DNA of 64,000 nucleotides from Cystobasidiomycetes sp. EMM_F5 (Eukaryota). The translations under genes and the position numbers were made by a program. The notes beneath the pieces are model-generated. The model saw nothing but the letters and a program-made list of their open reading frames with translations, did not search any database and was not told the origin of the DNA. Below, in pieces: positions 3,543-27,598 of this stretch. The DNA lies in assembly GCA_051047955.1 (NCBI GenBank), contig JBPGPT010000044.1, forward strand, positions 1-64,000. Reading direction: 5' to 3'. Position 1 is the stretch's first letter; every line of letters begins with the position of its first letter.

Positions 3543-3644
3543 AGTATACTGCCGAAGAGCGAGGGGTAGACCGACGCCGGGTTCTGGACAGGAGTAGTAT
3601 ACTGCCGACGGGCGAGGGGTAGACCAACGCCGGGTTCTGGACAG
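3543..3644. repeat. Tandem direct repeat, 2 x 49 bp, period 53
   Basis: agtatactgccga(a/c)g(a/g)gcgaggggtagacc(g/a)acgccgggttctggacag at 3543-3591 and 3596-3644, 3 mismatches. Confidence 0.95.
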
Positions 3645-3703
3645 ACTGTCTGTGGGAGTTGATACTGAGCGTCAAGACTTCATCGGATTTGCTCTATTCA
3701 AGT

Positions 3704-4822
3704 ATGTGCGACTTCTCACAGTACGGCGGTCCGAGCGCCGAATGGCTCGCGCTCGAAGCCGAGCTGTCTACACCTTCTGTTGACGGACTGTCAATCAACG
3801 ACCTGAAGAAGCTGACTAATGGTGGACGAGAGGCTACATCAGCTAAAGAGATGGAAAGTCTGGCGGGCAGTATCGAGATGCAGGACTACACCATCGAGGC
3901 CAGAGACGGCTATAAACTCCAGGCGCGGACGTACCGCAAAAAGCAGACGAAGAATGACCGGCATGCTGGAGCAGTCTACATACATCTACACGGAGGAGGC
4001 CATCTATTCGGCACGCTCGATTCGGAAGACGCGGCGTGCGCAAGACTAGCAATCTCATCGGGAGTCACAGTCTTGAACGTCAATTATCGACATACACCAG
4101 AAGCAACGTACCCTGTCCCTTGGAATGACGTAGAGGACGCGTATAGCTGGCTGCATGCTGTGCGGCCTTTTCACTTCGATCCGTCGTTTGTGATCCTCGG
4201 AGGCATATCCGCTGGAGCGTGGATGACGGCTTCAATTGCACTGGCCCAGCATCTCGGCAACAAGCTGCAAGATTGTCCGAAGATAGCTGGGCAGGTGCTC
4301 ATCATTCCTTGCTTAATTCATGCCGACTGTTACGGTCCTCAAATGGCCAAAATGCTTGAGCCAGAAGTCTCTTCACGTCACCAGCACGCAAATGCACCTA
4401 TCTTACCGAACGAGCGCATAAAGCTGTTCCTAGATCTGCTCAAGGTGCAAGATATCGAGGCTGAAGATTTGCTCCTCAATCCTGGCAATGTCACACCTAC
4501 TGATGCGAAAGGCTTGCCTCCGACCGTTATTGGTGTTGCTGGGTACGACCCACTCAGGGATGATGGCTTGTTATACGCACAGACATTGGAAGCCGCAAGG
4601 TGAGCACATAGACGGATGTTTGTCCATACGTCCGACACTCACGTATCGATCTCCTACAGTGTGCCGACAGCAGTGGACATCTTCAAGGGTGTACCGCATG
4701 GATACCGTCGTTACGGAGACAAGCTCAGCCTGTCGAAGCGGTGGGACGAGGTCATTAGCGAAGGTCTGCTCTGGATCCTGTCACGGCCCTGTCAGGGCAA
4801 AGCTCTCAGATGCAATGAATAA
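3704..4822 (+). CDS. Alpha/beta hydrolase, hormone-sensitive-lipase-like (Abhydrolase_3) esterase
   Basis: HGGG oxyanion motif, NYRHTPE, GISAG nucleophile, GYDPLRDDG, GVPHGY in last exon after one intron (~4600-4659). Confidence 0.9.
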
Positions 4823-6673: not shown

Positions 6674-8565
6674 CTATGCACAGCTAAACGACGACGCATC
6701 GGTATCATTTCCACCGTTAAAGATCGCCTTCTGCGGGTATGGGCAGAATTTGCGGGTGTAGGCAACGCCCTGACTAGCGTTGTTGTTATTCCAACGCACT
6801 CCCGTCACCGAATTTGGGGCTTGACCCTGCTCGACCCAGGCTATGAGGGCACGAAGCACATCGTGCTGGACATCGTCTGCCAGAGGAGGTGTACCACCAG
6901 ATCTTTGCGATTGTCCGCCGAAGCCGTCTTTGCGGCAACTAATTCAGCAGTCGTTGAGTATGAGTGAGAATTCAGCTCACTCGCTCCATCTCCGCCATTA
7001 CAATGAGCCATTCCTGGTATGCGAAAAAGGCGATAAAAGTCGGTAGTACTGGTATTGGTGTTTGCCTTATTGAAGGCGTCGACCGAGTTGTAGAAATCGA
7101 TAGAATTGCCAGCTGCTATAAGCTGATCTCCCATTCCGACGTAGTGCAGAACCTTTCCGCCTCGATTCACAAAGGAAGTTAGGTTGGGGCTTGTCAAATC
7201 CTGTGGTCACGCTTAGCAAGTTCAAGGATGACGAATACGTCTGAACCTGCGCACCATGTTACCCGGATTCACCGCATCCCCCTTCAGTATATCTGTGATA
7301 TTCAAGTTGCGATAGTCCCAGGTCGTGTCGTTCCATACAAAGTATTTGTAGAAATCGGGCGAAATTGAGAATATTGTCGGGCCGACCAAACCCGTTCGGT
7401 AAGACAGTTCACCGCCCGGCGCATACGAAGCGAAGACGTAGGTATTGTTGCCATCGAGGTATGGGCGGTATAAGTTTCGAACGGCCGCGATTTGTGGGAT
7501 CGTCAGACAGGCTGTCGTATTGGTGGCATTAAGGCTACAGGTCAGCGTCTCTGGACGAAAACTGCGCCAATCTCAGCGCGGCGTATATTGGACTGCATAG
7601 ACTGGCACGTACGCGCATGCATATGGATCTTCCAGTACACCATCGCGCACACCATCGAGGCCATCACACTGTCTCAAAACTTCGTCGTGAATAACACTCC
7701 AAGTTGCCGACGATATCCAGGACGATGCGTTGACGGGAGCCACGAGGTTATACTGCCGAATGGACCACGGCTGCAAGCGCGACATACGATTTGCCGGTGA
7801 GCCAACCACAATGGCATCGAAGTCTTCGGGGAACATTTGTGCTGCCTTGAGACCCATCCTTCCGGCTGTGGAGCATCCGAGGTAGTAGGTCTTGTTCTGA
7901 GCTGTGCCATAATATACTTGCGTGATAGATTTTGCGGTGAGGGTGCTGACTCGGAGCGCCCTGTGCGTTTGCGAGTATTAGCACGTTAATCCGACGTCCG
8001 AAGAAGATTTCAGACTACCTGTAAGCGAAATCTGTAACGGCATTCTTGTCAACACCCCATGAGCCGTCTAGCGAAGACGAATTGTGGCCAGTATTGGTGG
8101 AGAAGGACGCAAACCCTCGGTTTGCGCCATCGAAAGACAGAGAAGAGTAAACGATGCCTGTCGAGAGATTATGTAGCTTGTACTTCAGCGTGGCATGTGA
8201 CGATGGGTAAAAGCACAGCTGGGAAATATACCTCCATTCCAGCCTCCGTTTCCGAAACCAAGCAGTCGATTATTCCAGGCATCAGGCAGCCAGACTTCTG
8301 TATTTGCATAATTTCCGCTGGTAGCGTTCGTCGTAATCAGTAACGCCAGGCGGCAGAAAGCAGTGAGATTAGTCGTCGTTATGCTGCTAGCATTGGAGGT
8401 GAAGTTGACGAGAGCGCCAGCCGGGAAGTATTGCTTGACGGCGATTGTCACACCTGTAAGGTTCGCAGGCAAAGTGAAATTGTTGCATAGCGAAGCCCCA
8501 GGACCTTGTTGAGCTATGGCGGTTGTAGCAGCCAGTAGAGTTACGATAGATGCAGCGAATAACAT
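6674..8565 (-). CDS. Secreted tannase/feruloyl esterase
   Basis: Signal peptide, EVWLPDAWNNRLLGFGNGG, GCSTAGRMG nucleophile, QCDGLDGVRDG, LFRIPGMAHCNGG, WVEQGQAP, CPYPQKA. Confidence 0.92.
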
Positions 8566-9260
8566 TTCAGCGTTGACTACTCAACTATACTAGTAGAGAA
8601 GAAAAGAAGAAAAGTAGGCACAGCGCGAACGATGGGAACGATGGATATCGTTCGGATGGCCGGCACCTTTGGGCTCCATGGGGTAAAGTGCACGGGGACT
8701 AGGCCCGTGGAGATCATGTGGGCTCTCGCCTAAACAATCGGCCGGCCGCGCGCTGCGCCGAAAAAGTCCTGCAGCCTCCAAGAAGGCGTGCATACAGGCG
8801 TTTGTGCAGACTCGAAATATCATAGAACATGCAATCTTCCCGTCCATTGCATTGATGGATATTGATCAATGACCGACGTACGCATTTGAATGATACTCGA
8901 GCTCGCTCGATATATGCCGTGATCGACCGCTGAATGTCCACTTACATACAGATTGTATGCGTACACGACAAGCGTACTGCACTATGATGTATGGATTCGC
9001 GAGAGATCGAAAGACGTTCCCCCTTTCCTATAGGCAGCTTATGCATATAGTTCCCCGCCCTTAGTAAGCTTGCGCCGTCCGAAGATGGAACAACATGAAG
9101 AGTCGAAAGCTTGGCAAGCATGCAGTATTTCATTACTCCAGTGACATATCTGACTACGTATTCTATGCTTCCCGCGCAGCTGATAGTTCTACCTAATACT
9201 TTAGCACCGGCCACTTTACTTGTAACAAGTCACTCCCGATTTCTGACAAAGGCTACAATT

Positions 9261-11350
9261 TCAAAACTTCAAGTCGTCATCAACGTTGCGATTCTCCTCT
9301 TTCCCAACCTTGCGTCGAAGCGCTGCGATTCGACGGACTTCGCGTTCGGTGTCTTGCGTCAACCACCAACAGACTGTGAGAGCGCTGACAATCGTAGCAA
9401 TGGTGAGACCAGCGCAGCACATATACGGCAGCAAGTAGCGTGGTGCTGCATTTCGTGAACGTGGGAGTTTTGACATGGTAACAGAAAGGTTAGAGGGTCA
9501 GTCGCAGAAATTGTGGAGAAAAAGCAGATGAAATGAGTAATCAGCGACCCGTAACCATTGACGAGATGTAAGACGAACCATATTGCGAGCGGAAGATTTG
9601 AGCAGACCCTGTGAGAAGGCCGTACGATGTTAGCTCTCGCACAGACTACGAACTGGCGGACCGCGCGAGTATCTAGACTTACAAAGCCCTGCAATTTGAG
9701 CAGACCCATTCATCCATGCAACAACAAAGCTATAGGATGTAGCACCGCGCGCGGTCTGAAGTCGCCATGGCAGGTATGTCACAAATGCCCAGGCTGCGAA
9801 AAAGCTGCCAATGATGACAATTGCGTAGAGTGCCGCTTTGCTAGTGACGAAGGCCAAGAGGAACAGGCAGACCACCCAACAAGAGCATGAGAAGGTATAT
9901 ACGATTGGACGAGGAATCATGGTTAGACGATCGTTGAGAAGAGCTCCGAGTGTGCCTCCCATCCAGTATAAAAATGCTGGAGCAATGCTGAGAAGTTGCA
10001 CAGTCGCGCCATTAGAAAGGCCAAAGCTTGCAACGATTGTGGGAATCCAGAACAGATACTGAGCTTTGTATCAGCTATGGCTCCTGCGCGGGGGATTTTT
10101 TGGGTGCTCACCCCTAAAACCCCAGTCTGATATGCGATGATAGTTATGCCAAAAGCATAATTCTGCCATGAGCGAAGCTCGTACTTAATTGCCGCCCAAT
10201 CTATGTTTGCGTCCGTCGATCGCGAGGCGTTCTTCTGCAGACGGCCGACGACCCAGGCGCGCTCTTTTTCAGTAAGGAAAGAACAGGTATCGGGGTCTGT
10301 TCAAGCCTCGATGAGCGTAAGCCGAGAAAGATGAAGCTATTATCTTACAATTGGGCATGTAGAACCAGACGACCACGGCGATTGGTATGCCAAGCAGCCC
10401 TTGCACGATGAAAACCCATTGCCAGCCGGAGAGCCCACGGCCATCTGCAAAGGAAAAACCATATGTGATGAGAGCACTAAAAACGTTGCAGAATTGGTAC
10501 TGCAGGTTACTTTTCAGCCTCGCCTACCCATCTGTTCAGCCGCGCATCTATTTACCATAGTTGACACGATTGCGATGCGCCAGCCCAATTCCTCTGTTCG
10601 ATAATAGTACGAAAGGTGAGCATAGATTCCCGGCGCAAGGCCTGCTTCCATTAACCCGAGGAATGCACGAGCTGTCAAAAGGCCGCCTAGATTCTTTGAA
10701 GCTGCGTGACACGCCGTCACGGCCGACCAGAGAAGGAGGATACGGATATAGTGGACGCGCTAGGAGGAATGAAAGGCCCGACGCTACTGTCAATCATGCT
10801 TTCTGTACGCGCTCAAGACTTTGTTTCACAACTTACCGGAGTGGCCCACTTCATGGAGAGATTGGACGGCATCTCTCCCAAGACATAAAACAACGTAAAC
10901 AGGGTTGAAGTAAGCTAGAGATAGCCAGGAATTAGCGTTTACCGAGATCCGGTTAGGCCCGCTAGTCGCCTACAGCATAGTCATTGGAACTGATATTCAG
11001 CTGATTGAGAATATTGGTTGGCTTGCCAGCATTCATGGTCTTGACGTAGCTGATTGCGCCCGAATCTATTCCGCGAAGCGTGTATATGAGCATGCAGATG
11101 GGAATCATGTGCCAGTCGACTTTGCGAATAATCCGCTGGCCCTCTTCGTACGTGAACCTGACAAAGTGCAGGGTATTAGTCACGATGAAAAAGCTTTATA
11201 GTTCGCTTACAATTGTCGTTGTTGTTGTATCTCATCGATAGATTCACCGACTGGGGACACATGCCCGGATCCATCTTGGGAGTCTGTCTTTTCGACGTCT
11301 ACTTCTTTTGGATACTCAGGAAGCATGGCAATCGTCCGAGTGTCAGTCAT
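9261..11350 (-). CDS. MFS transporter (anion:cation symporter, allantoate/nicotinate permease-like), multi-exon
   Basis: IIRKVDWHMIPICMLIYTLRGID, RAFLGLMEAGLAPG, YYYRTEELGWR, GLSGWQWVFIVQG, multiple TM exons. Confidence 0.88.
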
Positions 11351-11435
11351 GTCGACAATAGTAGAGAGGAGAAGCTGTTGAGGACGTAGGAAACAGGAAG
11401 AGATACGAATTTCATGCTTTATATGTTTTGTGCAC

Positions 11436-11577
11436 TCGCGCAACCCTTATCAGCGGATACGTCTCAAGGCAATTGCAGTTCGCCCAAATTTTCCGGTAAA
11501 ATAGGCACCAGAGGAAAGAGATTGGTTCGCCGACTAGTCGCGCGAAGGCTCTGCGCGAGAGAACTCAGTTTGCGCGA
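11436..11577. promoter_or_regulatory. TCGCGCA motif cluster in MFS/aldolase divergent promoter
   Basis: Exact copies at 11436(+), 11552(-), 11571(-); palindrome TCGCGCGA at 11538; GATA sites at 11446 and 11599. Confidence 0.5.
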
Positions 11578-11679
11578 GCAGTTTATGGTGGCAAAATAGA
11601 TAACCCCACCAGGAAGATGAGGTGTCTTGCTCAGCCTCTTCACATTTATCATCACACACTTACTGCCATACTAATTACG

Positions 11680-12844
11680 ATGGTACCGGGTATCATGCTT
11701 AACAACGGGACATCTTCCTCGACTACTGTGCAACAGGCAGAAGCGTCCGCGGCCCCACTCAAGCCGGTTGCCAACCCAGCAGCAGTTCCGCAGACAGCAC
11801 GTCAATTCGATACCAGCAAGACTCCTCTGGAGCGGACCTGGAGAGGAGATGTCGATGGTCGAGTCCGCTACGAGGGTTACCCGAAGTTCAATGGTGATAG
11901 GCTCGCAGAGCGGCAATGGGTGAAGGTGAGATGCGGACGCCAACACTTACATCACCTCGACTAATGAAGCGTCCGGTCAACTGTACTTTGGTAAGGAGCA
12001 TCTCGCAACAGCGTTCCAATTCTGGGGGAAATTAGGCTTTGGAGACGGCCTCAGCGGTCACATCACGTACCGAGATCCCGTTCTTGTGGAGTGCGTCTTG
12101 TTTCTTGAGACTGTTGGAGTCAACCTGACACGGCGATAGTCACTTCTGGATGAATGCTTTCGGGCAACACTTCTCCTCCATTCGCGTTTCAGACCTCGTC
12201 CTCGTTAGCCCGGAGGGTTTCGTGACGGAACATGGCGCGCAGCGCCCCATCAACCAGGCCGGCTTCAACATACACAGTGCGATACACCGTGCTCGTCCAG
12301 ACTGTCATGCCGCTGCGCACTGTCATTCACTTTATGGCAAAGCATGGAGCGTATTTGGGAAGAAAATCGATATTCTTACACAAGATGCTTGTCTCTTTCA
12401 CAATAACCAAGCGGTATACGAGAACTTTGGAGGTATCGTTTTGGCTGCCGAAGAAGGTGAAGAAATCGCCCAAGCATTGGGCCCCAAGAACAAAACGGCA
12501 ATCCTGCAAAATCATGGCTTGCTCACAGGTGAGTGGTCGCGAAAGCTCTTCTTTATACGGCAAAGGTTTTCCACACGCCTTCAGCTGACATCTGCGCTTT
12601 CGACGCAGTTGGGGAGACCGTTGACGAAGCCGTATATCTTTTTAGCGCCTTGGAGAGAATGTGCCAAGCTCAATTACTCATTGAAGCGGCTTTGGGTGGA
12701 GGAAATCTGACCAAAAAGGTGATTGGTGACGCCGAAGCTGCATGGACAGCCGCGACTCTTCAATATCCGGAAAACGTCTACGCAAACGCCCAGACAGAAT
12801 TTGATTTACTGCGCTTGGAGCGTGGTCATTTCTTTTTGCAGTAG
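11680..12844 (+). CDS. Class II aldolase/adducin-fold metalloenzyme
   Basis: GLSGHITYRDP, FWMNAFGQHFS, INQAGFNIHSAIH, AAAHCHSLYG, ILQNHGLLT (HxH...H metal ligands). Confidence 0.9.
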
Positions 12845-13250
12845 AAGACTCCGCCTATGAGCTTGTATATTAGGAAACGAGATGAAGTATCCGGATTGAT
12901 ATGGCTCTCCCGGATTGATATGGCTCTCCCATTAGTAGTCGGCGTGACTCGGTGCATGTTCAGCATAAATTCTGCCCCGCATTGTGCATGCTCTCTCATC
13001 TTCAGCCCTGCTAAATTGGACCATGTGAGTAGCTGTCAGTAGCATATCACTGCAGTGAACCAAGTCAATGGACAAAGTCAGAGAGCAATGCCACTTGAAG
13101 GACGTTTGACGGGAAAATTTCTGCAGCTGCGTGCCCGATCAGCTCGTGGTGAGTGTAGGCTCAAGAGGTGATGTTCAGGAACGCGCTGCTGCGTTACAGA
13201 GCACCGCATGATCAGACACAACACATCTGCTCGTCCCCAAAATGTATGCT

Positions 13251-14379
13251 CTACAACGACGGCTCCCCGGGTTCGACAACACCCCTTCGTTCCGTGAGCA
13301 GCGTATAATGCTCAATGCGCCTGTGCTTCTCGAATGCAAAGGTTTTGCCCTTACCCATCGCAGCAGCATCAATATCGATATCTGCCACGACTACCTCATC
13401 TCCCTCGGTTTTATTTTCTGCAACGATATGTCCTTCCGGGTCCACAATCATACTGCCGCTTATGAGAGGATGCAGACCGTCATCAACACCGCAGCGAGCA
13501 GACGTGATGAGGAAAGTCGAATTGGTGTACGCATGCGCCTGGCATACGAGTTTGTGGTGAAACATGGCATCTTCATAGGCTTGTTGGCGAGTCATCGAGT
13601 CCGGATCGATGCCCCAGAGCTCTGGCGCCCATGCTGTTGTGTTCTGCATGGGGCCGCGAGTCGCAATGAAAAGGTGTCAGCTGAATACGCAAATTCGACA
13701 GCGCTTCGCTATTTTGTCTCACATAACCTATGCACATAATCTCCACGCCTTGAAGCCCATAGACTCGCCAACCTTCAGCCCATCTTCTATCATTGCAGAT
13801 CAGCATGCCAATGATTGGACTCTTGCTGCTTCCTCCGGACGCTTTACGTAGGGACGGTGCTCGAAAGGCGTTGAAGCCCAAATTCCCGGGCAGGAAGTAA
13901 CGCTTCTCAAGCTGGTTGGTTGCTATTGGATCCTTGCTGAAAGGCTCAACCGTACCAGGCAAATGGATCTTGCGATATTTGCCAATAGGAAGCCCGCTTT
14001 CCGAACTGACGTATGTTGCCGTATTGTACCTCTGCCCAGCGGGTGTTTGCTCAGCATACCCCACGACTACGTCGATGTCCAACTCTGCTGCTTTAGCGAA
14101 GAATCTTTGGACAGCTGAGGAATTACGGCAGCCGACAATGCCTTTCGGACTGTCTTCCTCTACATCAAAGCAGGCTGCGAGCTCCTGATCATCAGGTGAA
14201 GAGTAGTATGTTCGAGGGAAGAATGTCGTGAAGGTCGTCTCCGGAAACACTGCCAGCTTCACGCCTTTTGCAGCGGCTTCCTCCAGTAATTTGATTAGGC
14301 GCGGAATGATATCTTCTCGACTAGCACATCGATCAACCCTTCCGACTTGAATCGCAGCGACACGTAGGGGACGAGGCAT
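13251..14379 (-). CDS. N-carbamoyl-D-amino acid amidohydrolase (D-carbamoylase; nitrilase superfamily), one intron
   Basis: Catalytic Glu-Lys-Cys in VFPETTFTTFFPR, YRKIHLPG, ICNDRRWAE; LEKRYFLPGNLGF and IGY|NT are D-carbamoylase-type signatures. Confidence 0.88.
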
Positions 14380-14595
14380 GTCGAAGAGACGGGTCAATAA
14401 TTTTGGGTAGACTTAGGAGACGGCACCAAGGCTGCGAACGGCTAGAGCTACGCGTCGAATTTGGTAATAGCGGGAGGGAGGCGTCGCAGTATGACTCTTC
14501 CGGTCGCTTTCAGTGAGATCTGCATGAGCATACTACTGTACTCGCCCTCAACGACCTGTCATCAATTTGGCCGAACGGACTTTACTTCCCCTTCC

Positions 14596-14661
14596 TTCGC
14601 GCAAAGACCGCGCTCGCGATTGGGCGGTCTCTTGTGCGAAATTGCCCGAAGAAAGCGATAA
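14596..14661. promoter_or_regulatory. Dyad element with TCGCGCA in carbamoylase/racemase divergent promoter
   Basis: TTCGCGCAA-AGACCGC...GCGGTCT-C-TTGTGCGAA inverted repeat (14596-14640); GATAA at 14657. Confidence 0.45.
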
Positions 14662-14888
14662 AACGATACAGCGAAAGTGGCATTGCTCGGAATACGGCAC
14701 ATGGCTGCAGTCGAGTACATTAGGTGTATCTAAAAGGGCTGCGCCGGCCTCACTCCGCTGTCGCTCTCCGCACGTACACCCTTTTCTCTACATCAATCCT
14801 TCTACGTAACGTCCTGTAACACGACTAGTTGGCAAGACGCCTTGCCTTGCCGTTTCTCAGTACAGTCAGCCATTTCGATAACTTCGTC

Positions 14889-15663
14889 ATGAGGAGCATT
14901 TCGATTCTTGTCATCAATCCTAATTCTTCGCAAAGTATTACGGACGGTCTCGCCTCATCGCTTGTGCCTTCCGTTGCCGGCTTACCCAATGTCGAGCTCG
15001 ATTTCTACACGGGACCTGCACATGTTGCAGCTGCTATTGTTGATTATTCAACTATGGCATCAACTTCAGTACATTGCTACGAGGACCTTCTAAAGTCGGG
15101 GAAACTCGATAAATACGACGGATATCTCTGCTGTTGTTGTGAGTATTAGGCCCAGCAGTTGGAAAGCAACGTGCAGTCTGAAACCCAGTCCAGTCTCCGA
15201 TCTGCCTTTGCAGCATATGATTCGTGAATACCATGGTACTGGCAGCAAACGGCTGTGCGTCGGAATGTTTGAGGCCGCAATATCCGAATGCATGCTATAC
15301 TCGCGTCGCTTCGGTGCTCTCTGCGTCGGAACGGGACAAAAGCCCCTGCTTCCCAAGGGCGTTTCTGCATACCTTGGTGCCAATGGCAGCGACAGGTGGA
15401 TGGGATATGTCGCCAGCGGCCTCGGCGTACTGGAGCTGCGGGAGGGCGACAGGAACATAGTCGAAATGACTGTCCGTGACGCGGCAAGGAAGGTAGCGGA
15501 GCTCGGCGCGGAAGCCATCATGTTGGGTTGCGCTGGCTTCTCTGGTATGGAGGACATAGTTCTTTCCGGAGCTTCCGAAGCCGTTGGCGGAAGGACCGTA
15601 CGCGTCGTCGATGGAAGCAAAGCAGGCTTAAAAATGTTGATAGGCGCGTTGCTGGTGACGTAG
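14889..15663 (+). CDS. Asp/Glu/hydantoin racemase (hydantoin/allantoin racemase, Dcg1-like), one intron
   Basis: ILVINPNSSQSIT, YTGP, CCC|FSD after splicing, GMFEAAI, IMLGCAGFSG, VVDG; both catalytic Cys positions present. Confidence 0.9.
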
Positions 15664-15853
15664 TGCACCACAACAACGCAGAGGACGGACAAAGTCAGAG
15701 AGCTGGCCTTTCTTTCATGTTTTATCGGCCACACTGTTTAGCGTGGTCGACGCATCAAGAGTGTCTAGCATGTAGTCCAAATCTGGCATAGCAGATATCG
15801 CCCAAACGTCGAAGTTCGGCAGATCTGCGAAAGTGAAGTCAGTCGCTAGGCGT

Positions 15854-18492
15854 TCAGGAGCGGGAGCAGCGTTGTACTAGATGGATGAACAGATCAGCAA
15901 TAAGTTCAAGCAGAGCAACAAGCTTCCTTACAATCTGTGCGGGCGAAATATGCGTAAAGGAAGTAGAGACTGGGATGTTACTGATGAAGTCTGTTGTGGT
16001 TCCGTAGGCTGCTTGACTGCTCTGCACTAAATTTGTTGCTCGCTTCTTAGGCTGCAAGGCCGACAAGAGATCGCTGAAGTCATCGTCGAGCATTCCGTTT
16101 GCTAAAAGCCTAGCCGCAACATTACGAGCGCGTTGCAGCGCCCATGAGGCCGTCACCCAGTGAAATTCTGTATACGATTGTTCGATTGCCTTGCACAGCC
16201 TGGCGGTCAGAGTGACAGGATGCATACGATGATTGTCAGGTATAGTATTATACTTTGACGTGGTAGCATCCTGTGTGACGTTTGGCATTTTTATAGCCAA
16301 GGAGTATCGCACCAAGCACGATAGTACCGATGACAAGACATGAGTAGCATCTGCGTAGCAACGAGGGATCAGCGGAATTCAACTCTGTAAAGACACTTCA
16401 CGTACATGGAAGGTAGAATGAGCGGAAGTTGGCTGGCTTAAGTGAGGACACGAAGCGGACGAAGCTGTCAAATACCAGCAAGCTCTGCATGCTTGGTACG
16501 AAAGGTGATCCCAAGCCGAATTCTCTCTCTATCCTGATTCGCGCTATCATGCATCGAAAGCCAAGCAAAAGTAACAATGCGTTGTCTAGAATGTGTGTGA
16601 GCCTAATGCAGCACGGGAGGCTTTTTAACACCAGAGAACTTACCCATACCAGGAGGCCTGTCCTGCGTATACGTACACGCCTCTGCGTCGTGACATAACA
16701 AGGCCAGCGCTTCATCAAGCTCATTGCATAACTTGAGATTCTCGTGCCGACGGTCCGAAGTCAATCGTGCGAGTACAGCTAAACGCCGCTGCAACCGCGA
16801 TACCAACATTGTCACTTGACAGAGTAATGGAAAGGCATTTTGTGACGGCTCGAAATTGTAAGGACTATGATGCTTTCCGGGGAGGTTGCAATTTGCAAGT
16901 TCGTCCGGCCTTAGTGTGGAGTAATTTTCGTGCTGAATATGGCTTGGTCGACTAGTTAGGAAGCTTGTCCATGTGTCGTGTACAAACAAGCACCACCACA
17001 GCGATCTGCGGACATTCTGCTCTTCGACCGGGATATTCCAAGATCGAGGCTCGATATGTAGACCTAGCATTTGAGCCTGAGCAATGGTCTTAGCCAGTAG
17101 CATGTAATCCATTCGCGTGTCAAGACAAAAGCGACGCGTCAACGCCAGAACAGGAATAGCGATCGAGTCCAAATCCATGGTGACGGACGCCAAATTGGCA
17201 ATATCTGCCTCTTGCGCGACGCGCCATACGTACTTTTGTAATTCCTGCGAATCTGCTTGAAGCTCGAGTGCTTTACATAACATAACAGCCTGTAGGAGAG
17301 ACGAATGTTGGCCCCCTTCTTCCGAACACGGAAAAGCGGGGAGGCATTCTTTCGCCATCGCGGACATCAAGCTGCTTTCGGATGTCCCCTGAAGTAGTAA
17401 AATTGCTCGCAGCCGCTCCAAGAGATCTTTGGCTTTGGCTTCAGACGCAGCAACCGCGTTCTTTCGGTCTGTTGTCACGACTTATCAGAACAACCAAACG
17501 AATGCGCTCGCATGCAAAACCTGACGTACATTCTGGAATAGGATGCACCACAAAGAACATGGGGCTGGTCTTGTCGATGGACATCTGCGTGTGTGATGAG
17601 CCAGTACCTTCGTTCGACTGATGGCCATTTGACTGGCCGTCCGGTTGAAGCAGCAGGAGATCATCGGTCAGCAGCGCAGTGATGGCGATCGCTTCTCCGC
17701 AAAGATCCCTCTGCTGCTGCTGTCCTCGTCCCGAATGTTGAGGCTGTCTGAATACCGAATTGGACGCTGCAGGATGGTGATTATGGAGCGGGGTGTTATT
17801 TGACGCCTCTTGAAGGATTGGCCTCGCATCATGCGCATTCAAATGCAGGGAATTTTGGCCCTGTGTCGTCAATTGATAATCCTGCCAGAGGGAATCTTGT
17901 AGTGTCCCTAGCAGAGGTTCCGAAGACAATGATGAAGAGGAGACCGTATTGGCGGCTAAGATATCTTGCAGCCTTGCCATTTCGGAGTGTGATGCTGGAA
18001 GACTCTGGCTAGCGTTAGCGGCAGAGTCTGGGAGATGGAAAGTTAGCGAAAGTCTAGCTCTCAGCAATGGGAAGACTGACGGCTTCGATATGCTTCATCA
18101 AGCTGCGATATATTCCTGTCATGTTGAGTGGTGCGCCCTTTATCGTATGTCACAGAGCTTCCAGCGGAGAGCGTAGGCAGTATGTTGTGCTGAAGCGATA
18201 CATGGCTAGCGGCTGTATCACTCAAGTCTGGTTGCTGTTGTTGTTGGGGCGTCCGTCTTCTCTTGGGCGAGCCTTCGCCGGGGTCATCGTATCGCTTTCT
18301 GGGCGGCATGAGGAAGGTGCAGCTCTTTCCGCCGTTCCGACATAGTTCACATGCAGCACCGACTTGCTCGATGACACAGCGCAGTCTCTTGCTACGACAA
18401 TTATCGCATGGCCGGTTCTTCCGACTGCGTACTGGTCGAATGCCCTTCCAAGCCTTATCGCTGGTTTCCTTCACGCCGGCTTGCTGCTCCAT
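15854..18492 (-). CDS. Zn2Cys6 transcription factor with fungal-specific TF domain (Dal81/TamA-like); 3' end approximate
   Basis: RPCDNCRSKRLRC..CELCRNGGKSCTF binuclear cluster; AQMLGLH..W.IP.EE..RRSLWWCLFVHDTWTS middle homology region. Confidence 0.88.
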
Positions 18493-19422
18493 TGCGCTGG
18501 TTGCACGGGGTCATTACTGGCCTTTTATGGGTTCTTTCGAAGTCATGGTGACCTTGCAGCAGATTGACCGAGGCTAGAAGCTGGAGCAAAGCTTAAGTTC
18601 AAGAAGCTGGCAGAGGCGCAAATCAAAATCTCCCTTCACAACGTTTATCAATTCGACTTCGACTGGCAATGCTGCGGAGTGTCCATCCTCCTCAAAATGT
18701 CGTCACATCTCTCCCCCCTGTTGTTCAAATTGTTGATGCCATTTAATCTGATGTAATAGAGGTGACTGACTCGCGCTAAGTGCCAAATATTTCAGCTACG
18801 AAGAGCGTGCAAGGCTGACAGCGCTGCGATAACGTCCTCCTCTGTCCGCTTCTGGGGAGGATACGCGTCTGATTTTACCTGACATGCGCGCGACCAAACA
18901 CTCACATTTGTCCGTATTGCAGTATGCACACCCTGCAGTTTTACTGCTTCTTCTATTGCTTCATTCCTCGGAATGGAGGAACACAATCCTTTCGTCAGAT
19001 TCAGTGATGGCTGTTCGACGGATGTTCTTCCTGGCCAAGGCTTTGGCCAGATGGCGATGTCTACTCTGACCGGATCAAAGGCCGACAATTTGTGGGATGC
19101 ACTGAGTGACAGCGTTTCTCCTTGTCGTGGATGTGGTGATTACTGTGCGCTTCTGTACAACAAATCTTTGGTCAAGGCTGTCCCTCGTGACATCGCACAA
19201 GGTAACGTGTGATTCTCTGATCGTGCAATAGTGGTGACCGGTAGCGATGTGACACGCGTTGGCTGCAGACCCATCAAGGCCAAGTAGTTTTGGCCTCCTG
19301 CAAATCCGAGAAGCAGGAAAATCCGCAAGTGAAGTACAGGCCTGCAGTCCGTATCTGTCATCGCTGCACATTTTTGTAATACAGTATAAGAGCGACAACA
19401 ATCCACAACGCTACGGAAAACG

Positions 19423-20799
19423 CTACAACTTGCTCTTGACTATGGCTAGACTTGGGAAGCTGACCACTTCTCTTGCTATACGGGTCGCTTCTTCCGCACA
19501 TCCCCAACAGCATTGCCAGCCATAGCCTCCATGACCGTAGTTGTGTATCAGTGGGATTGAAGCTGACTCTGTTGCAGTATCGTCTACCCCCTTTACGCCG
19601 TTGAGATCAAGCTCCAAGCGTATCCCTGCCGCGCGAGTCGGACGAAAGCCTACCACAGACTTGATTGCTATACTTTGTAGGTCGACGTGCTCGGTCTGAT
19701 GTTTGGCCGATGCTGGCAATGAAGCCGTGTAAGGTTTGGCGGTAGGTCGTTGCTCAAGTTGAGGGCAAATTTCGACAGCTCGCCTTACGATGTCAACTGT
19801 CGTTTCCGGTCGTGGACTTTCGTGCCTGAGGGTTTGTAGCACTCGCATCAGCGTTGGGAAAGTGTATAGTAAGTGCAAGTTCGTAACGCAGACGCACCAA
19901 TCTTCCGCTTCCCGGGTACCACCGATAATGACTTCTCCCGATGCTCGTGGGATAACATACGTCCGCTGTCCTCCCTCGCCTCCACTGAGTGATCCAACCT
20001 GTCTTGTCCATCCACTCCTGACCCACGGGGCTCTGACTGCCAAGACTTGTCCGCGAACGGGAACAACCGTCTTGTCATTGACGTCGGATAAAGAGCGAGA
20101 TCCCAGCCCTGTGCAATTTACCACAGCAGCTGGCGACGCTCTCAGTGCTGCCAGAACAATTGCATGCTTGAGAGAGTCTGCTTTCGGTATGCGAGTGATA
20201 GTCCCGCCTAATCTCTCTATCCGTTTTGTAAGATAGGCCAGGTAGAGTGTTGGCTCCATAGTAAGCGATGTGAAGGAGCAGGAGTGCTGGGCAAAAGGCG
20301 GTAGCTTTGCGGCATCGTGTACGATAAACTGAAGTCAAAAGTCAGCTCGCCCTGCGCGTCCTGGCCGTCGACTGCGCATACTACTCACGTCTGGCAGCTG
20401 TTCAAGGAAACGAAGGTGCTTCTCGCCTTCGGTGTAGAATTCCGTTTGTGTCAATCGCAGCAGCCCAAACCTTGCCGCTTGCTCCGCATCCCTGCTTTCG
20501 TTCCAAAACACATCAAATGTCCGCTGATCCAGGAAGCGTTGCCGCCAGTCACCGTTGGCTGCGAAGGACAGATGGTGTGCTCCAGCAGCAGTGCTGGCAT
20601 AGTGCGGGTTCAGTTCATCGCTTGGGAGGTGTTGCGCTACGACTCTGACAACCAGACCAGCTTCCAGCAGTCGTACAGCAGTCGTCAGACCAACGCAGCC
20701 AGCTCCAACGACGAGGACTAGTGGTGCTCGGTGTGGATGTGCAGTCGGCATCCGTCGAAGCTGCTCTGACGCTGATGGCTGACGGCTCTCAGTGTCCAT
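19423..20799 (-). CDS. DAO: D-amino acid oxidase family FAD enzyme with C-terminal SKL peroxisomal signal
   Basis: VVGAGCVGLTTA, YASTAAGA, VVNCTGLGS, PVRGQ, YVIPR, GFRPTR, HNYGHGGYGWQ, ends -KSKL*. Confidence 0.9.
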
Positions 20800-20925
20800 G
20801 ACGTTGAAGAGGAGGTGGTGATAGCACGCCGACGTCTCCTTAGGATACCCTCACCGCTATTGACAAAGTCTGCAGCTTACAATACGTACTTTTACTCCTC
20901 TGGCAGTCCAGGCGAAGTTCGCCAC

Positions 20926-20984
20926 TCGCGCAGACCGGTCAATTGGCTCGCGCAAGGCTTTGGCGAGGTGGCCGACGACGATAA
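20926..20984. promoter_or_regulatory. TCGCGCA motif pair in DAO/hydantoinase divergent promoter
   Basis: Exact copies at 20926 and 20948; GATAA at 20980. Confidence 0.5.
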
Positions 20985-21147
20985 AGAAGCAAGGCGTTGT
21001 TAAGTATGCAGGCGCAACACTTTAGAGCGGTGGAAAGCCGTCCTGTCCACAAGACGTACGAGCAGGAGACATAGCGAAGGACTGGTGTATCACCACTTGA
21101 AGCCAACGACTCTCAAAGGCAGGACATTACACAAGTCCAGCTCAAGT

Positions 21148-22783
21148 ATGTCTTTGGACCTCATCATTAAGAACGGTATTATTGTCACTGCGAGCGACGA
21201 GTACAAAGCCGACATTGGCGTACGCGATGGCAAGATTATCGTCATAAGCGCAGAATTGCCTGTGCCAGATGGGTGCGAGGTTATTGATGCGGATGGAGGT
21301 TTTGTGACGGTGAGCGAAGTAACGCCAAAGCTATATTCTGGGTTTATGCACTGATGACTCTACTTCTATCTAATCTGCACGACTACAGCCAGGAGGTATC
21401 GATTCACACGTACACATCGCACAATCCGCCGCAAAGTCGTTGGGCGCGAGAAGTGCAGATGATTGGACTACAGCTACTCGTTCTGCCGTGGGTGGGGGGA
21501 CCACGAGCGTCATTGCTTTCGCCGTGCAGAATCGCGGCTGCTCTATGCGGGATGCCGTTGACGCATACCATGAACTTGCGAACGACAAGGCCATATGTGA
21601 TTACGGGTTCCATGTCATAGTGTAAGCAGATATCAAGCATATGAGGCTGGACATCATCTGAAGTAACATATGCTTCTACAGCACGGATCCAAGCGAGCAC
21701 CAAATGCATGTCGAGCTACCGTCACTTATGAAGGATGGCATCACGAGCATCAAGATCTACTCCACATATCCTGCTCTTAAGCTAAATGACACTCAAATTC
21801 TGGACACCTTCTACGCCGCTCGACAGCATGGCATCACTGTAATGGTCCACGCGGAGAACTCCGACATGATAGAATGGTTTACGAAAGATCTCGAGAACCG
21901 CGGAATGACTGAACCTTGGCATCACGGCACATCACGTCCTCCCATCGTTGAATCCGAAGCCACAAATCGTGTGCTTGCCCTGAGCGAGATTATGGACTGC
22001 CCTATTCTCTTTGTGCACGTATCGGCTCCAGATGCCATTGCGGTCATTCGGAACGCACAGACACGCATGCTTCCAATCTATGCTGAAACATGTCCGCATT
22101 ATATGCTGTTAACCGCAAAGGAAATGAAGGCTCCAGGGTTCGAGGGTGCAAAAGCATGCTGTGCTCCACCTCTACGAGAAAATCCAGACGATCGAGAACG
22201 TGTCTTTGATGGCTTGCGGAATGGGACATTGACAATCTACTCTTCGGACCATGCACCGACGAATTATTACGACGCGGACGGAAAGCAGCTTGGTCTGACT
22301 AAAAATCCTGGCAACAACCCTCGCGGCAATTTCCGGTACATACCCAATGGCTTGCCTGGAGTCGAGACGAAAGGCCCTCTCCTTTGGAACGAGGTCTGCC
22401 GCGGCAGGATAACGCCCTCGCAATTCGTCGCCCTCAACTGCACCAACGCAGCTAAATTGTATGGCATGTACCCACAGAAGGGCACGATTCAGCCTGGAAG
22501 CGACGCCGATTTTATAATATGGCAAAAGCCAGCGCAACGCCAACGATTCCAGCTCTCGGTATCGAAGTTGCATTCGGCGTGCGACTACACTCCTTATGAA
22601 GGACACGAAATGCTAGACTGGCCGTTGAAGACGATTCTGCGAGGCAAGATTGTGTACGATGGGGAGACGAATGAGGTAATTGCCAAACCAGGCTTTGGGA
22701 AATGGCTAGTTAGGGGAAAGAGTCAGCTGCAGGGCCCTCGGAATCAGTGGCTCAGCGAATGGCGGCCGAGATATATGCAGTAG
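21148..22783 (+). CDS. D-hydantoinase/dihydropyrimidinase (amidohydrolase superfamily)
   Basis: DLIIKNGIIVT, PGGIDSHVH, GGTTSVI, GITSIKIY (carboxy-Lys), VHAEN, FVHVS, SSDHAP, PNGLPGVET, KGTIQPGSDAD, DYTPYEG. Confidence 0.93.
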
Positions 22784-23182: not shown

Positions 23183-25927
23183 ATGCATTTCTTCATCGAT
23201 GAATTGGAGGTCGCTTTCCCGTACGATCTAGTGTATCCGGAGCAATACAGCTACATGTGCGACTTGAAGAGGACCCTCGATGTCGGCGGTCATTGCGTGT
23301 TAGAAATGCCGTCGGGCACTGGCAAGACGGTCTCTCTTCTCAGTCTCATCGTTGCGTATCAGCAGGCTTCGCCGGAACCACGAAAGCTCATTTACTGCTC
23401 GCGTACCGTCCCGGAAATCGAGAAAGCTTTGGCCGAATTGAAACGACTATGCGAGTATCGGAAGGACGAGAATCCCATCATGGGAATAGGCTTGACGTCT
23501 CGAAAGAATCTCTGCATCCATCCTCAAGTGGCCAAAGAGAAGAAGGGCAAAGCTGTCGATGCTAGATGTCGGGATTTGACAAATGCAGCCGTGTGCGAGC
23601 GAGGTAGAGCGGATCCAGGCAGCGTGGAACTATGCGACTTTCACGAAAAGTTGGGAGAGCGCGAACCTGGAGATTTGTTTCCTAGGAATATTTGGACTCT
23701 TGACGACATCAAACAGTACGGCATTCAGGAAGGCATCTGTCCATATTTTGCGGTTCGCCGCATGCTAGCGCATGCCGACATCGTAATCTACTCGTTCCAC
23801 TACCTTCTCGACCCGAAAGTCGCAGAGCAAGTATCTCGAGAGATGGATAAGAATTCCATCGTGGTATTTGACGAAGCTCATAACATAGACAACGTGTGCA
23901 TTGAATCGTTAAGCATCGATCTGACCCGTCCAATGTTGGAAAGCGCAGCGAGAAGCGTACAGAATATTAATGAACGGATAGAGGAGCAAGTCATTTCTCA
24001 GCCTCGTTTTCCTGACTGCCGCGCTAACGAAGCCGCTTTGTTTAACAGAGTCAAGAGAACCGATGCGACGAAGCTCCAAGATGAGTATCAGAAACTCGTA
24101 CAGGGTCTACAGGAGCAAGATCTGGCCAGAGATGAAGAACAATGGATGACGAATCCGGTCTTGCCAGAGGACATCTTAAAGGAAGCTATACCCGGCAACA
24201 TTCGTCGTGCCGAACATTTCACCGCTTTCCTAGCCCGCTTTGTGGAGTATCTGAAGACGCGGATGCGCGTATTGCACGTCGTTGCGGAGACACCAGCTTC
24301 TTTCCTTCAACATCTGAAAGAGCTTACTTTCATCGAGAAGAAGCCTCTCAAATTTTGCTCTGAGCGGCTGTCTTCTTTGGTGCGGACTCTGGAGATACCA
24401 AGACTAGATGAGTATTCTGCTCTGCAAAAAGTAGCAGCTTTCGCCACCTTAGTAGCAACATACGAGAAAGGTTAGACTTGACTAAATGCACTGGCAAAGT
24501 TTTCGGCTGAGAGTAGATTCCCCAGGCTTTCTCTTGATTTTGGAGCCTTTCGAAAGCGACATGGCCACAGTGCCCAACCCAATTTTTCATCTGACGTGTC
24601 TTGACGCATCTCTGGCGATCCAGCCAGTATTCGAGCGATTCAGCAGCGTCGTTATTACTTCTGGAACGATCTCGCCGCTGGATATGTATCCAAAGATGCT
24701 AGGATTCACCGCAACTGTCATGGAGTCGTATGCAATGACACTCACGCGAAACTGTTTCCTGCCGCTGGTCATCACACGGGGATCAGACCAAGTTCCAATC
24801 AGTTCAAGATTCGAAGTTCGCAACGAACCCGCTGTCGTCCGTAATTTTGGCACTATTTTGATAGAATACTGCAAGGCTGTACCGGATGGCATTGTGGCAT
24901 TCTTCCCAAGCTACCTGTACATGGAAAGTATCGTCGCGGCCTGGAACGAAATGGTGAGCACTTCGCAATTCACAGCTGGTTTGCGATTGCTCACCGTCTG
25001 AGAACTCAGGGTATATTGAACGATGTCTGGAAGCATAAGCTCATCTTTGTAGAAACTCCAGATGCGGCCGAGACAAGCATCGCACTGGAGAACTATCGAC
25101 GAGCATGCAACAACGGCCGAGGCGCAGTCTTACTCTCTGTCGCTCGAGGCAAAGTTTCCGAGGGCATCGACTTCGACCATAACTACGGCCGGGCTGTAAT
25201 CATGTTTGGCATCCCCTACCAGTATACGGAGTCGAGAATACTGAAGGTCAGGCCGAGTAGCAGTCGCCGTCGGCAGTAAGATACGTGCTGATTGCAGCTC
25301 GACAGGCTCGGCTCGAATATATGCGTGACAACTACCGCATTAGAGAAAACGACTATTTGACTTTTGATGCAATGAGGCACGCAGCTCAATGCGTTGGGCG
25401 TGTATTGCGGGGAAAGGTTAGGGTACGGGACACCGATATGCATGGCTCAGCTGACTCAAGTATCATTGTCGCCGCGTATTCAGACTGACTATGGATGCAT
25501 GGTCTTCGCTGACAAGGTGGGTAAAAGGTCTGACAACGACACATGCGCATTTGTTGACCTTGGTCTCACGCAACAGCGCTTTGCAAGATCGGACAAGCGG
25601 GCAAAATTGCCCAAGTGGATCAATCAATATATTGCCGACACTGCTACCAATCTGTCGACTGACATGGCTATAGTCATGACGAAACGCTTTCTTCGTTCAA
25701 TGGCACAGCCTTTCGAGCACGATCAGACCGGCGTGTCCATGTGGTCGTTGGAGCATATCGAGGCCCGCCAGAAGGCTGTGAGAGAAGCTGCGGAGGGCGG
25801 TCGAACGCTCGGAGGGGCAGACGAGGTCCGCAATCCTGTTGCAGACGCCGAAGCGGAAGGATGGTTTGAAGGGTTTGAAGACGAGGAAATTATGGCCATC
25901 GACGAAGCAACCAATGACCAGGTTTAG
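23183..25927 (+). CDS. RAD3: TFIIH DNA helicase XPD/Rad3
   Basis: [60 protein letters not shown]. Confidence 0.97.
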
Positions 25928-26166: not shown

Positions 26167-27598
26167 ATGGATACCTCTGTCCCGAATGGCCGCATCGTCA
26201 CACTGACCAGGTCGGTGGATTGGTATCCGGACCCCGCTGCATTTCATCCGGCTAATGGGAATGGCGCTACTGCAGTCATACTCTGCAAGAACAGCATGAG
26301 CTAGGACCTAATGCTACTGGAGATCTCACTGCTCTGCTCCAAGCCATCCAAACGACATGCAAGACTATTGCCATGAATGTGCGGAGAGCACGGCTGTTGA
26401 ATCTGTGAGCATTCGAACTCAAAAACACAACACTCTCCAGCGCGCCTGACCAGACCGCTCTCTCTCCCAGAATTGGCGCGGCTGGTACCGCCAACAAGAC
26501 TGGTGACGATCAGAAGAAGCTCGATATCCGTGAGGCCGTCTACAATGGGCTACAACCTAATGACAGGCTGCTGACGGTTTTCTGACTGCAGTCTCCAACG
26601 AAATCATGGTCAACACGTTAAAACTTTCTGGCAAGACTTGCGTGATGGTGTCTGAGGTGAGGGCCGCGTCGGTGCTTCTCGAAACATCAGTCTAATGTCA
26701 TATACAATTACAGGAAGATGAGGAGGCCATCATTGTCGAGGACATGTATCGAGGAAAGTACGCAGTCGTCTTTGATCCTCTGGATGGTTCTTCCAACATC
26801 GACGCCGGTGTGAATATGTGAGTAGATGTGGCTGCAGTAGCAACTCCGCATAGCCTGACCTGGCTGTAGTGGAACGATCTTCGGTGTCTACCTCGTCAAG
26901 GGCAAGGGCTCCGTCAACGATGTGCTCAAACCAGGAAGACAGATGGTCGCCGCTGGGTACTGCATGTATGGGTCGTCTTCCAATCTTGTAATCAGTACTG
27001 GAAATGGCGTCAACGGCTACACGCTTGACATCGTTTGTGAAGCTTTGTAGTCGTAACAGAGATTGTGATGCTGACATTTTGCAAAAATCTGCAGGGTATC
27101 GGCGAGTTTATCCTAACCCATCCAGACATCAAAATTCCATCTCGAGGCAAAATCTACTCTTGCAACGAAGGTAACTCTCTCTTCTTCCACGAACCTTGCA
27201 AAAAGTACTTGGAGAGCATCAAATGTGTGTCTATCAGCATCGGAATACCACAGTTTATACTAAAGATTCGTCAACGTACAGTCCCGAGCAATGGCAAGCC
27301 GTACTCCGCGAGATACATCGGATCCATGGTTGCGGATGTTCATCGAACGCTGCTCTACGGCGGCATCTTCTTGTACCCGGCGGACAAGAAGAGCAAGTCT
27401 GGCAAGTTGCGTCTCCTGTACGAAGGCTACCCGATGGCATATCTTACGGAGCAAGCGGGTGGCTTAGCAACCGATGGCAAGATTGCCGTGCTAGATATTG
27501 TCCCAACACAGATACATCAACGCACAGGCATCTTCCTTGGCAGCAAAGAAGACGTGGAAGATGTGATGGCATTCTACAAAGCTGAGGCCAGTGCTTAG
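26167..27598 (+). CDS. FBP1: Fructose-1,6-bisphosphatase
   Basis: [58 protein letters not shown]. Confidence 0.96.

Follow-up and report, generated by a model that had tools for sequence, protein, structure and literature searches.

Results

A seven-gene cluster in a fungal contig

Positions 9261 to 22783 of a 64,000-nucleotide (nt) stretch of DNA from Cystobasidiomycetes sp. EMM_F5 (contig JBPGPT010000044.1 of assembly GCA_051047955.1; the whole stretch is called the window below) were found to contain seven intron-bearing genes, among them members of the three enzyme families that make up bacterial hydantoin-degrading hyu clusters. The base composition of the window (GC content of about 0.51), its short GT..AG introns and the presence of Zn2Cys6 and Fungal_trans domains identify the DNA as fungal. 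An earlier reading of the letters alone, here called the original prediction, had proposed seven contiguous intron-containing genes in this order and orientation, six of them arranged as three head-to-head pairs, in a cluster that ends at RAD3. Pfam searches and spliced gene models bore out each of these points. The first coordinate, 9261, is the stop codon of a major facilitator superfamily (MFS) permease gene and the last, 22783, is that of a hydantoinase gene; a tannase gene adjoins the cluster on the left and RAD3, recognized by its DEAD_2 and HBB domains, is the next gene on the right. Permease and aldolase-like gene, carbamoylase and racemase, and oxidase and hydantoinase make up the three divergent pairs. 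The gene models, which are predicted spliced structures, were built from splice-site logic and homologue alignments, and intron 2 of the hydantoinase gene was set by hand. All seven have open frames and GT..AG introns of 49 to 133 nt. The genes are as follows.

11350-9261, minus strand: MFS permease, predicted anion:cation-symporter type; 8 introns, about 510 amino acids
11680-12844, plus strand: aldolase-like gene, TqaM/NovR-like; 3 introns, 321 amino acids; alternative start at 11617
14379-13251, minus strand: predicted D-carbamoylase; 1 intron (13722-13644), 349 amino acids
14889-15663, plus strand: racemase of a divergent Asp/Glu/hydantoin subfamily; 1 intron (15139-15193), 239 amino acids
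18492-15854, minus strand: Zn2Cys6 factor, candidate cluster regulator; 4 introns, 803 amino acids
20799-19423, minus strand: flavin adenine dinucleotide (FAD) oxidase, predicted D-aspartate oxidase type; introns 20388-20329 and 19897-19826, 414 amino acids
21148-22783, plus strand: dihydropyrimidinase/D-hydantoinase; introns 21310-21388 and 21622-21681, 498 amino acids

The two hydrolases and the racemase

Pfam models were scored on pieces of open reading frames (ORFs), and where several bit scores are given for one gene they belong to separate pieces of it. The carbamoylase matched CN_hydrolase with 90.9 and 43.2 bits. When its first exon was compared to the PDB, 17 chains were matched at E values of 1e-3 or lower, the top 11 of which were all D-carbamoylases (E values from 4.2e-39 to 1e-35). 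The next family followed only at 3.4e-6, and no beta-ureidopropionase was present among the 17. The alignment to the D-carbamoylases of the PDB spans the motifs FPE, KYRKIHLPG and ICNDRRW, and the segments PETTFTTFFPR, KYRKIHLPG and ICNDRRW were invariant among 34 fungal homologues. We take these segments to hold the Glu-Lys-Cys triad and, in CNDRRW, the carboxylate-binding motif. These results indicate that the predicted product of the CN-hydrolase gene is an N-carbamoyl-D-amino-acid amidohydrolase (D-carbamoylase), the activity of which might still extend to N-carbamoyl-beta-alanine. A separate observation concerns the homologues: protein P0244 from a metagenome-assembled genome, which shares a 90% cluster with a 164-amino-acid carbamoylase fragment, is 507 amino acids long and may be a merged gene model, since other fungal carbamoylases have 330 to 360.

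The amidohydrolase matched Pfam Amidohydro_1 with 26.4 and 54.1 bits. Its best NCBIfam model was PRK13404 (dihydropyrimidinase), with 406.5 bits for the last exon and 95.9 and 38.6 bits for the others, and TIGR02033 scored 309.4, 87.8 and 28.6 bits, a rough exon sum of about 426 against a cut-off of 393. Among solved structures the yeast dihydropyrimidinase PYD2 (2fty) was the best match (1.3e-100), followed by bacterial D-hydantoinases (1nfg at 9.4e-70, others down to 1e-62), while allantoinases (3e-31) and dihydroorotases ranked far lower. The translation contains the motifs HVH, SIKIY, VHAEN, FVHVS and SSDHAP of the metal site, in which the metal ligands are presumably the residues familiar from this family. 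The protein is thus assigned, from its predicted translation, to the dihydropyrimidinase/D-hydantoinase family with binuclear-metal ligands.

The racemase matched Asp_Glu_race (PF01177) with 25.4 and 55.6 bits and no NCBIfam model, and its sole relative in the PDB was allantoin racemase 5lfd (1.6e-5). Removal of its 55-nt intron restored two cysteine motifs, CCCFSD and LGCAGFSG, the cysteines of which we assume to be the pair expected for the two-cysteine mechanism of this family. A word-based homologue search with exon 2 returned 3 proteins among 631 candidates, one of which was the window's own. The racemase appears to be a divergent member of the Asp/Glu/hydantoin racemase family, and this is the weakest of the enzyme assignments.

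An oxidase of the D-aspartate type

The oxidase matched Pfam DAO with 25.3 and 74.3 bits. Against the PDB it matched a D-aspartate oxidase (9vpf) at 8.6e-55, compared with 2.8e-22 for the best D-amino-acid oxidase. Upon alignment with human D-aspartate oxidase (DASPO; 6rkf, with its chain numbering read as offset by 9), the equivalents of Arg216, Tyr223, Arg237 and Arg278 were all found to be kept. Work on the human enzyme assigns Arg216 to binding of the side-chain carboxylate, Tyr223 and Arg278 to the alpha-carboxylate, and Arg237 to a gate (PMC8260693). The Tyr223 and Arg278 equivalents were invariant in all 62 aligned oxidase sequences. Human Arg216 and Arg237 align with the GWTRQ and GGTRE segments of the window protein, and arginine was present at these positions in 50 and 55 of the 62, respectively; the two D-amino-acid oxidases that were aligned had no arginine at the position equivalent to Arg216. 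The protein is on these scores and residues of the D-aspartate-oxidase type rather than a general D-amino-acid oxidase, which would narrow its likely substrates to those with acidic side chains. Its C terminus reads SKL and resembles a type 1 peroxisomal targeting signal (PTS1), the consensus for import into peroxisomes. Because the second oxidase intron (19897-19826) has a length of 72 nt, keeps the frame and lacks stop codons, a simple ORF runs straight across it; the intron is revealed only by a gap in the alignment with the solved D-aspartate oxidase.

The assignments of the hydrolases and the oxidase bear on an alternative in which the cluster serves a modified reductive catabolism of pyrimidines or of orotate, with a dihydropyrimidinase, a nitrilase-family decarbamoylase resembling ureidopropionase, and a racemase that acts on C5 or C6 of dihydrothymine or dihydroorotate. 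Such a pyrimidine-type substrate is the main rival explanation, although we judge it unlikely. It draws on the rank of yeast dihydropyrimidinase and of PRK13404 as the best matches of the amidohydrolase, and a ring opening of the dihydroorotate type would yield N-carbamoyl-aspartate, which suits both a D-aspartate-type oxidase and the anion-type permease described below. Conversely, the 17 PDB matches of the carbamoylase held 11 D-carbamoylases and no beta-ureidopropionase, neither the cluster nor the larger ORFs scanned in the window showed a gene resembling dihydropyrimidine dehydrogenase, and beta-alanine and beta-aminoisobutyrate lack the alpha-carboxylate that Arg278 and Tyr223 bind, which would leave the oxidase with no role. 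The carbamoylase family and the oxidase type therefore argue against the standard beta-alanine route but would be compatible with a dihydroorotate-like one.

Permease, aldolase-like protein and transcription factor

Three of the six ORF pieces of the permease gene matched Pfam MFS_1, and one piece of 81 amino acids matched TIGR00893 (2A0114, the D-galactonate transporter subfamily) at 7.9e-12, which points to an MFS permease of the anion:cation-symporter subfamily. The Zn2Cys6 factor scored 46.6 bits with Fungal_trans and 19.8 bits with Zn_clus, just below the cut-off of 21.

The aldolase-like protein matched Aldolase_II with 96 bits and NCBIfam PRK06208 with 185 bits on one exon. Its best PDB matches were TqaM (9m09, 1.6e-36) and NovR (9ryg, 7.3e-31), compared with 2.8e-5 or weaker for true fuculose-phosphate aldolases (FucA), and its H-x-H and NHG histidines aligned with those of TqaM. 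The latter is described as a non-haem-iron oxidative decarboxylase of 2-hydroxy acids with a three-His metal site (PMC13351049). The nearest relatives of the gene product thus seem to be the TqaM/NovR oxidative decarboxylases and not the sugar-phosphate aldolases. The gene was found in none of the other cluster copies examined, and it is a lineage-specific addition outside the conserved core; its product may act late in the pathway, on a 2-oxo or 2-hydroxy acid. A link between an aldolase-like gene and a carbamoylase gene in bacteria was considered and rejected, as it came down to a single match (locus L070) that lies among unrelated genes for GGDEF proteins and propionyl-CoA carboxylase.

The resemblance to TqaM raises the alternative of a biosynthetic secondary-metabolite cluster for a D-amino-acid or ureide product, in which the TqaM-like enzyme would play the role known from the biosynthesis of 2-aminoisobutyrate. 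TqaM, the nearest solved relative, is itself biosynthetic (PMC13351049), and a Zn2Cys6 factor, an MFS permease and divergent promoters are a layout typical of fungal secondary metabolism. We nevertheless consider this reading very improbable: no nonribosomal peptide synthetase, polyketide synthase, terpene synthase or other scaffold enzyme was found in or next to the cluster, and the core that is conserved elsewhere consists of hydrolytic and oxidative catabolic enzymes and does not include the aldolase-like gene.

Taken together, these assignments uphold the D-carbamoylase named in the original prediction, and each of the three enzyme families that characterize bacterial hyu clusters is represented, catalytic motifs included. 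The other enzyme names that it gave were correct as to family and need qualification as to type. The hydantoin racemase has the expected family and cysteine motifs and is divergent, with allantoin racemase its only solved relative; the D-hydantoinase has no relative closer than yeast dihydropyrimidinase; the D-amino acid oxidase is indeed an FAD oxidase of the DAO family, of the D-aspartate type by PDB scores and arginines; and the class II aldolase-fold enzyme has that fold, with the TqaM/NovR decarboxylases as its nearest relatives and a place outside the conserved core.

Recurrence of parts of the cluster in other fungi

We collected 79 metagenome loci with a relative of the carbamoylase, fetched by alignment of carbamoylase homologues, and searched them with the exons of the window genes (for the oxidase, with its first two exons only). 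Hydantoinase matches were obtained in 23 of the 79, most of them bacterial. The five loci most similar to the window, L001 to L005, are fungal, as judged by the carbamoylase intron in L001 and L003 and by Zn2Cys6 genes in L002, L004 and L005. In all four fungal loci that were long enough (L001, L002, L004 and L005), the hydantoinase and carbamoylase genes were head to head. Three of these (L002, L004 and L005) also had a full-length racemase (171 to 179 bits with Pfam) paired with a Zn2Cys6/Fungal_trans factor that was 43 to 47% identical to the window factor over the zinc-cluster part. In L005 the hydantoinase gene also has an MFS gene as its neighbour, which is related to that of the window (41% identity for one piece). 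The same locus carries a cytochrome P450 gene and a sugar-type transporter gene (17544-18767 and 14131-15782, both on the plus strand) between the carbamoylase and racemase genes, an insertion which indicates that accessory genes differ between lineages.

The comparison with named Basidiomycota was made from the homologue tables of the carbamoylase and the oxidase and covers these two genes. Consecutive locus tags for carbamoylase and oxidase were present in six species (Rhodosporidiobolus poonsookiae and R. ruineniae; Rhodotorula babjevae, R. kratochvilovae and R. araucariae; and Coniferiporia weirii), tags three apart were present in three Kwoniella species, and in nine further genomes or contigs, R. 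taiwanensis included, the two genes lay on contigs of equal size. Closer relatives extended this linkage to the racemase. A 17,436-bp contig of one close relative carries homologues of the racemase, carbamoylase and oxidase together, at 63%, 70% and 51% identity, respectively, and a contig of 42,702 bp carries racemase and carbamoylase homologues. The racemase homologues that share a contig with a carbamoylase homologue are 63 to 65% identical to the window racemase.

Gene order and pairing varied between all copies while membership recurred, which points to selection for proximity and not to a frozen inherited block. The linkage of these genes is conserved as a unit, in subsets, and co-clustering in other genomes, the absence of which would have counted against the original prediction, was found. 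FastTree trees of the carbamoylase and the oxidase placed the window proteins next to Pucciniomycotina, within basidiomycete clades. The ascomycete-type carbamoylases, with those of L002, L004 and L005, formed a separate fungal clade, and fungal carbamoylases seemed to stand apart from the 14 bacterial ones sampled, which did not form a single clade when the tree was rooted at its midpoint. The oxidase tree showed the Kwoniella copies near a carbamoylase gene as a paralogue group apart from the DAO1-like copies of Cryptococcus and from the D-aspartate oxidase of Vanrija humicola (ChDDO).

A short motif shared by the cluster promoters

We searched the four promoter regions of the cluster (1,574 positions) for shared words and used as the control 20,000 random sets, each of four intervals matched in length to the promoters. 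The hexamer TCGCGC occurred 10 times in the cluster promoters and 42 times in the window, and at least 10 copies were reached by only 5 of the 20,000 random sets. An 8-mer, TCGCGCAA, had four of its eight window copies within the cluster promoters, at the following positions.

11436-11443 and 11570-11577: TCGCGCAA, MFS/aldolase-like promoter
14597-14604: TCGCGCAA, carbamoylase/racemase promoter
20948-20955: TCGCGCAA, oxidase/hydantoinase promoter, with the variant CTCGCGCAG at 20925

The 8-mer was defined in the window first and counted in L001, L002, L004 and L005 afterwards, where seven of nine copies fell in the hydantoinase-carbamoylase and racemase-factor intergenic DNA, which makes up 12% of the sequence. 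Sites of the CGG-N-CCG kind typical of Zn2Cys6 factors were present only as a few scattered copies with no common spacing. These results make TCGCGCAA a candidate cis-element of the cluster and are suggestive, not proof. The self-regulation proposed in the original prediction fits the shared motif and is to be taken at the strength of that motif.

Recurrence and motif together bear on two further alternatives. In the first, functional links do not go beyond pairs of genes (hydantoinase with carbamoylase, and carbamoylase with oxidase), the cluster is a loose island that serves to scavenge D-amino acids or their N-carbamoyl forms, and the racemase and aldolase-like enzymes act on other substrates. 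The ascomycete-type loci, with hydantoinase, carbamoylase, racemase and factor and no oxidase found with the two exons searched, are what it would lead one to expect, as are the Basidiomycota, for which the link between carbamoylase and oxidase is the only one documented, and the divergence of the window racemase. We hold this to be rather improbable, because racemase, carbamoylase and oxidase homologues stand together on the 17,436-bp contig, each of the divergent promoters contains the same short motif, and the chemistry of the four enzymes is consecutive. The second alternative, that unrelated genes were juxtaposed by chance, could appeal to the documentation of the seven-gene set in this window only; it is the least probable of all, given that subsets recur in rearranged form in all four of the fungal loci that were informative and in some 18 genomes or contigs of basidiomycetes, and that a promoter motif is enriched.

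Surroundings of the cluster

The tannase/feruloyl-esterase gene immediately left of the permease (Pfam Tannase, 6844-8580, minus strand) has a separate counterpart about 12 kb to the right of the cluster (34941-35522, minus strand), and an Abhydrolase_3 gene lies at 3623-4600 (plus strand). The right flank is housekeeping DNA, with the RAD3/XPD helicase gene at 23183-25927 (plus strand), a fructose-1,6-bisphosphatase gene at 27041-27595 (plus strand) and a PIK1-type phosphatidylinositol 4-kinase gene at 28522-32672 (minus strand). Near the right end of the window, two ORFs for xylose-isomerase-like TIM barrels (AP_endonuc_2) occur on opposite strands (61144-61725, minus; 63024-63464, plus), and these may form another small catabolic island with a nearby sugar transporter gene (57413-59090, minus strand). 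No further cluster-related gene was seen among the larger ORFs scanned in the window. ESM Atlas searches with the racemase exon and with RAD3 confirmed their families and gave nothing beyond that.

Discussion

Proposed pathway and natural substrate

The evidence presented above leads us to conclude that the seven genes probably form a real, evolutionarily conserved and likely co-regulated catabolic cluster, a fungal counterpart of bacterial hyu clusters. Judged by the families of its proteins, the pathway would begin with uptake of a cyclic ureide, or of its ring-opened N-carbamoyl form, by the anion-type MFS permease. The two-cysteine racemase would interconvert the enantiomers, and the dihydropyrimidinase/D-hydantoinase would open the ring to give an N-carbamoyl-D-amino acid, which the D-carbamoylase would split into CO2, ammonia and the D-amino acid. 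A peroxisomal flavoenzyme of the D-aspartate-oxidase type would then oxidize the D-amino acid, with a 2-oxo acid, ammonia and H2O2 as products. The Zn2Cys6 factor would turn the genes on, possibly via TCGCGCAA in the divergent promoters. We infer the order of the reactions and the regulatory role of the factor from these families, and the completeness of the pathway in the same way. The original prediction of a complete route from hydantoin to 2-oxo acid is thus supported by the enzyme families and their clustering, and is altered by the type of the oxidase, the ambiguity of the hydantoinase and the position of the aldolase-like gene outside the core.

Several observations weigh against a conserved, co-regulated cluster of this kind. 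The full seven-gene set is documented in this window alone, and the four ascomycete-type loci yielded neither an oxidase, searched for with its first two exons, nor an aldolase-like gene. Most of the 79 metagenome loci were either bacterial or of too little length to inform. The adjacency in basidiomycetes was deduced from locus-tag numbers and matching contig sizes, not from DNA; the Meredithblackwellia carbamoylase and oxidase genes are on different contigs, and the carbamoylases of the Armillaria group had no oxidase partner among the 120 matches listed. The racemase scores weakly against its own family and is only 32 to 36% identical to the racemases of L002, L004 and L005. The hydantoinase resembles yeast dihydropyrimidinase no less than it does the fungal copies that are linked to a cluster, which leaves room for a dihydropyrimidine as its substrate. 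Finally, the promoter motif was found post hoc, with no control of unrelated promoters, and CpG-rich words may be commoner in promoters generally.

If the cluster is nonetheless the ureide-degrading unit proposed here, its natural substrate would more likely be a carboxylated ureide than an aromatic hydantoin such as those used in the industrial process, because the oxidase keeps the arginines for acidic side chains and the permease is of the anion-symporter type. Dal5, a yeast permease related to that of the cluster, carries allantoate and ureidosuccinate. Candidate substrates are hydantoin-5-propionate, 5-carboxymethylhydantoin, a dihydroorotate-like compound and N-carbamoyl-aspartate or -glutamate. 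Of these, hydantoin-5-propionate is a metabolite known from metabolomics of human blood and urine, and oxidation of histidine or ergothioneine is a candidate source of it. A more specific version of the proposal is attractive and, for the present, tentative, with the odds somewhat against it: a dedicated and ancient fungal pathway for carboxylated cyclic ureides, in which D-N-carbamoyl-aspartate or -glutamate would be passed on to a peroxisomal D-aspartate oxidase under conserved Zn2Cys6 control via TCGCGCAA. If true, it would supply a physiological function for the D-carbamoylases of fungi and for one branch of their D-aspartate oxidases.

Novelty and significance

The enzymes belong to known families, and for many of the fungal homologues the annotation "D-aspartate oxidase" or "N-carbamoyl-D-amino acid hydrolase" already exists. 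What appears to be new is the cluster as such, the coupling of carbamoylase to oxidase, the candidate cis-element and the conservation, confined to subsets of the genes, across Dikarya. No report of a fungal hydantoinase-carbamoylase-racemase or carbamoylase-oxidase cluster, of its conservation across Dikarya or of a TCGCGCAA cis-element was found in a literature search that left subscription journals largely uncovered, such that an earlier report is possible; the remark in the original prediction that no characterised fungal cluster with the full set was known to its author is in agreement with this. The natural role of D-hydantoinases and D-carbamoylases is, to our knowledge, still unclear, in bacteria as well, and the fungal cluster yields a short, testable list of natural substrates. 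It further offers a physiological reason for the "N-carbamoyl-D-amino acid hydrolase" genes that are widespread in Dikarya and for the extra paralogues of D-aspartate oxidase, a source of eukaryotic enzymes for D-amino-acid production, and a clean case of a catabolic gene cluster held together through rearrangements across fungal phyla.

Comparison with known systems

The window oxidase shares with known D-aspartate oxidases (ChDDO of V. humicola and human DASPO) the carboxylate-binding arginines and the PTS1-like SKL, and it belongs to the family tree of ChDDO, to which it is 43% identical. It differs from ChDDO, which has Met where the window protein and human DASPO have Arg237, and in being clustered with a carbamoylase gene, a setting for which no report on ChDDO was found in the literature. 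The aldolase-like gene has its best solved relatives among TqaM, NovR and CloR, with the histidine motifs aligned. The known enzymes of this group work in antibiotic or alkaloid biosynthesis (PMC13351049), whereas the window gene shares a promoter with a permease gene in a catabolic-looking cluster.

Two yeast systems are comparable in part. The PYD2 enzyme of Lachancea kluyveri (2fty) is the closest solved relative of the hydantoinase. Its partner PYD3 is an M20-type enzyme that is not known to be clustered with PYD2, whereas the partner in the window is a predicted D-carbamoylase of the nitrilase superfamily, accompanied by a racemase and an amino-acid oxidase. The yeast DAL (allantoin) cluster, which includes the racemase-family gene DCG1, is likewise of the type that scavenges nitrogen from cyclic ureides, and it too combines a cyclic amidohydrolase with a permease of the anion type and a member of the racemase family. 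However, the window amidohydrolase matches allantoinases far more weakly (3e-31) than dihydropyrimidinases, the cluster has no allantoicase, ureidoglycolate lyase or malate synthase, and the carbamoylase and oxidase have no DAL counterpart.

The closest parallel is with bacterial hyu clusters and the industrial D-hydantoinase process, which comprise a racemase, a D-hydantoinase, a D-carbamoylase and a permease. The three enzyme families and their catalytic motifs are shared; the window carbamoylase is about 40 to 50% identical to bacterial ones, and the hydantoinase-carbamoylase neighbourhood is common to bacterial loci too. In contrast to these, the fungal cluster has introns, divergent promoter pairs in place of operons, a Zn2Cys6 factor as its putative regulator and an anion-symporter MFS permease, and it adds a predicted peroxisomal oxidase of the D-aspartate type as the last step, together with the TqaM/NovR-like gene.

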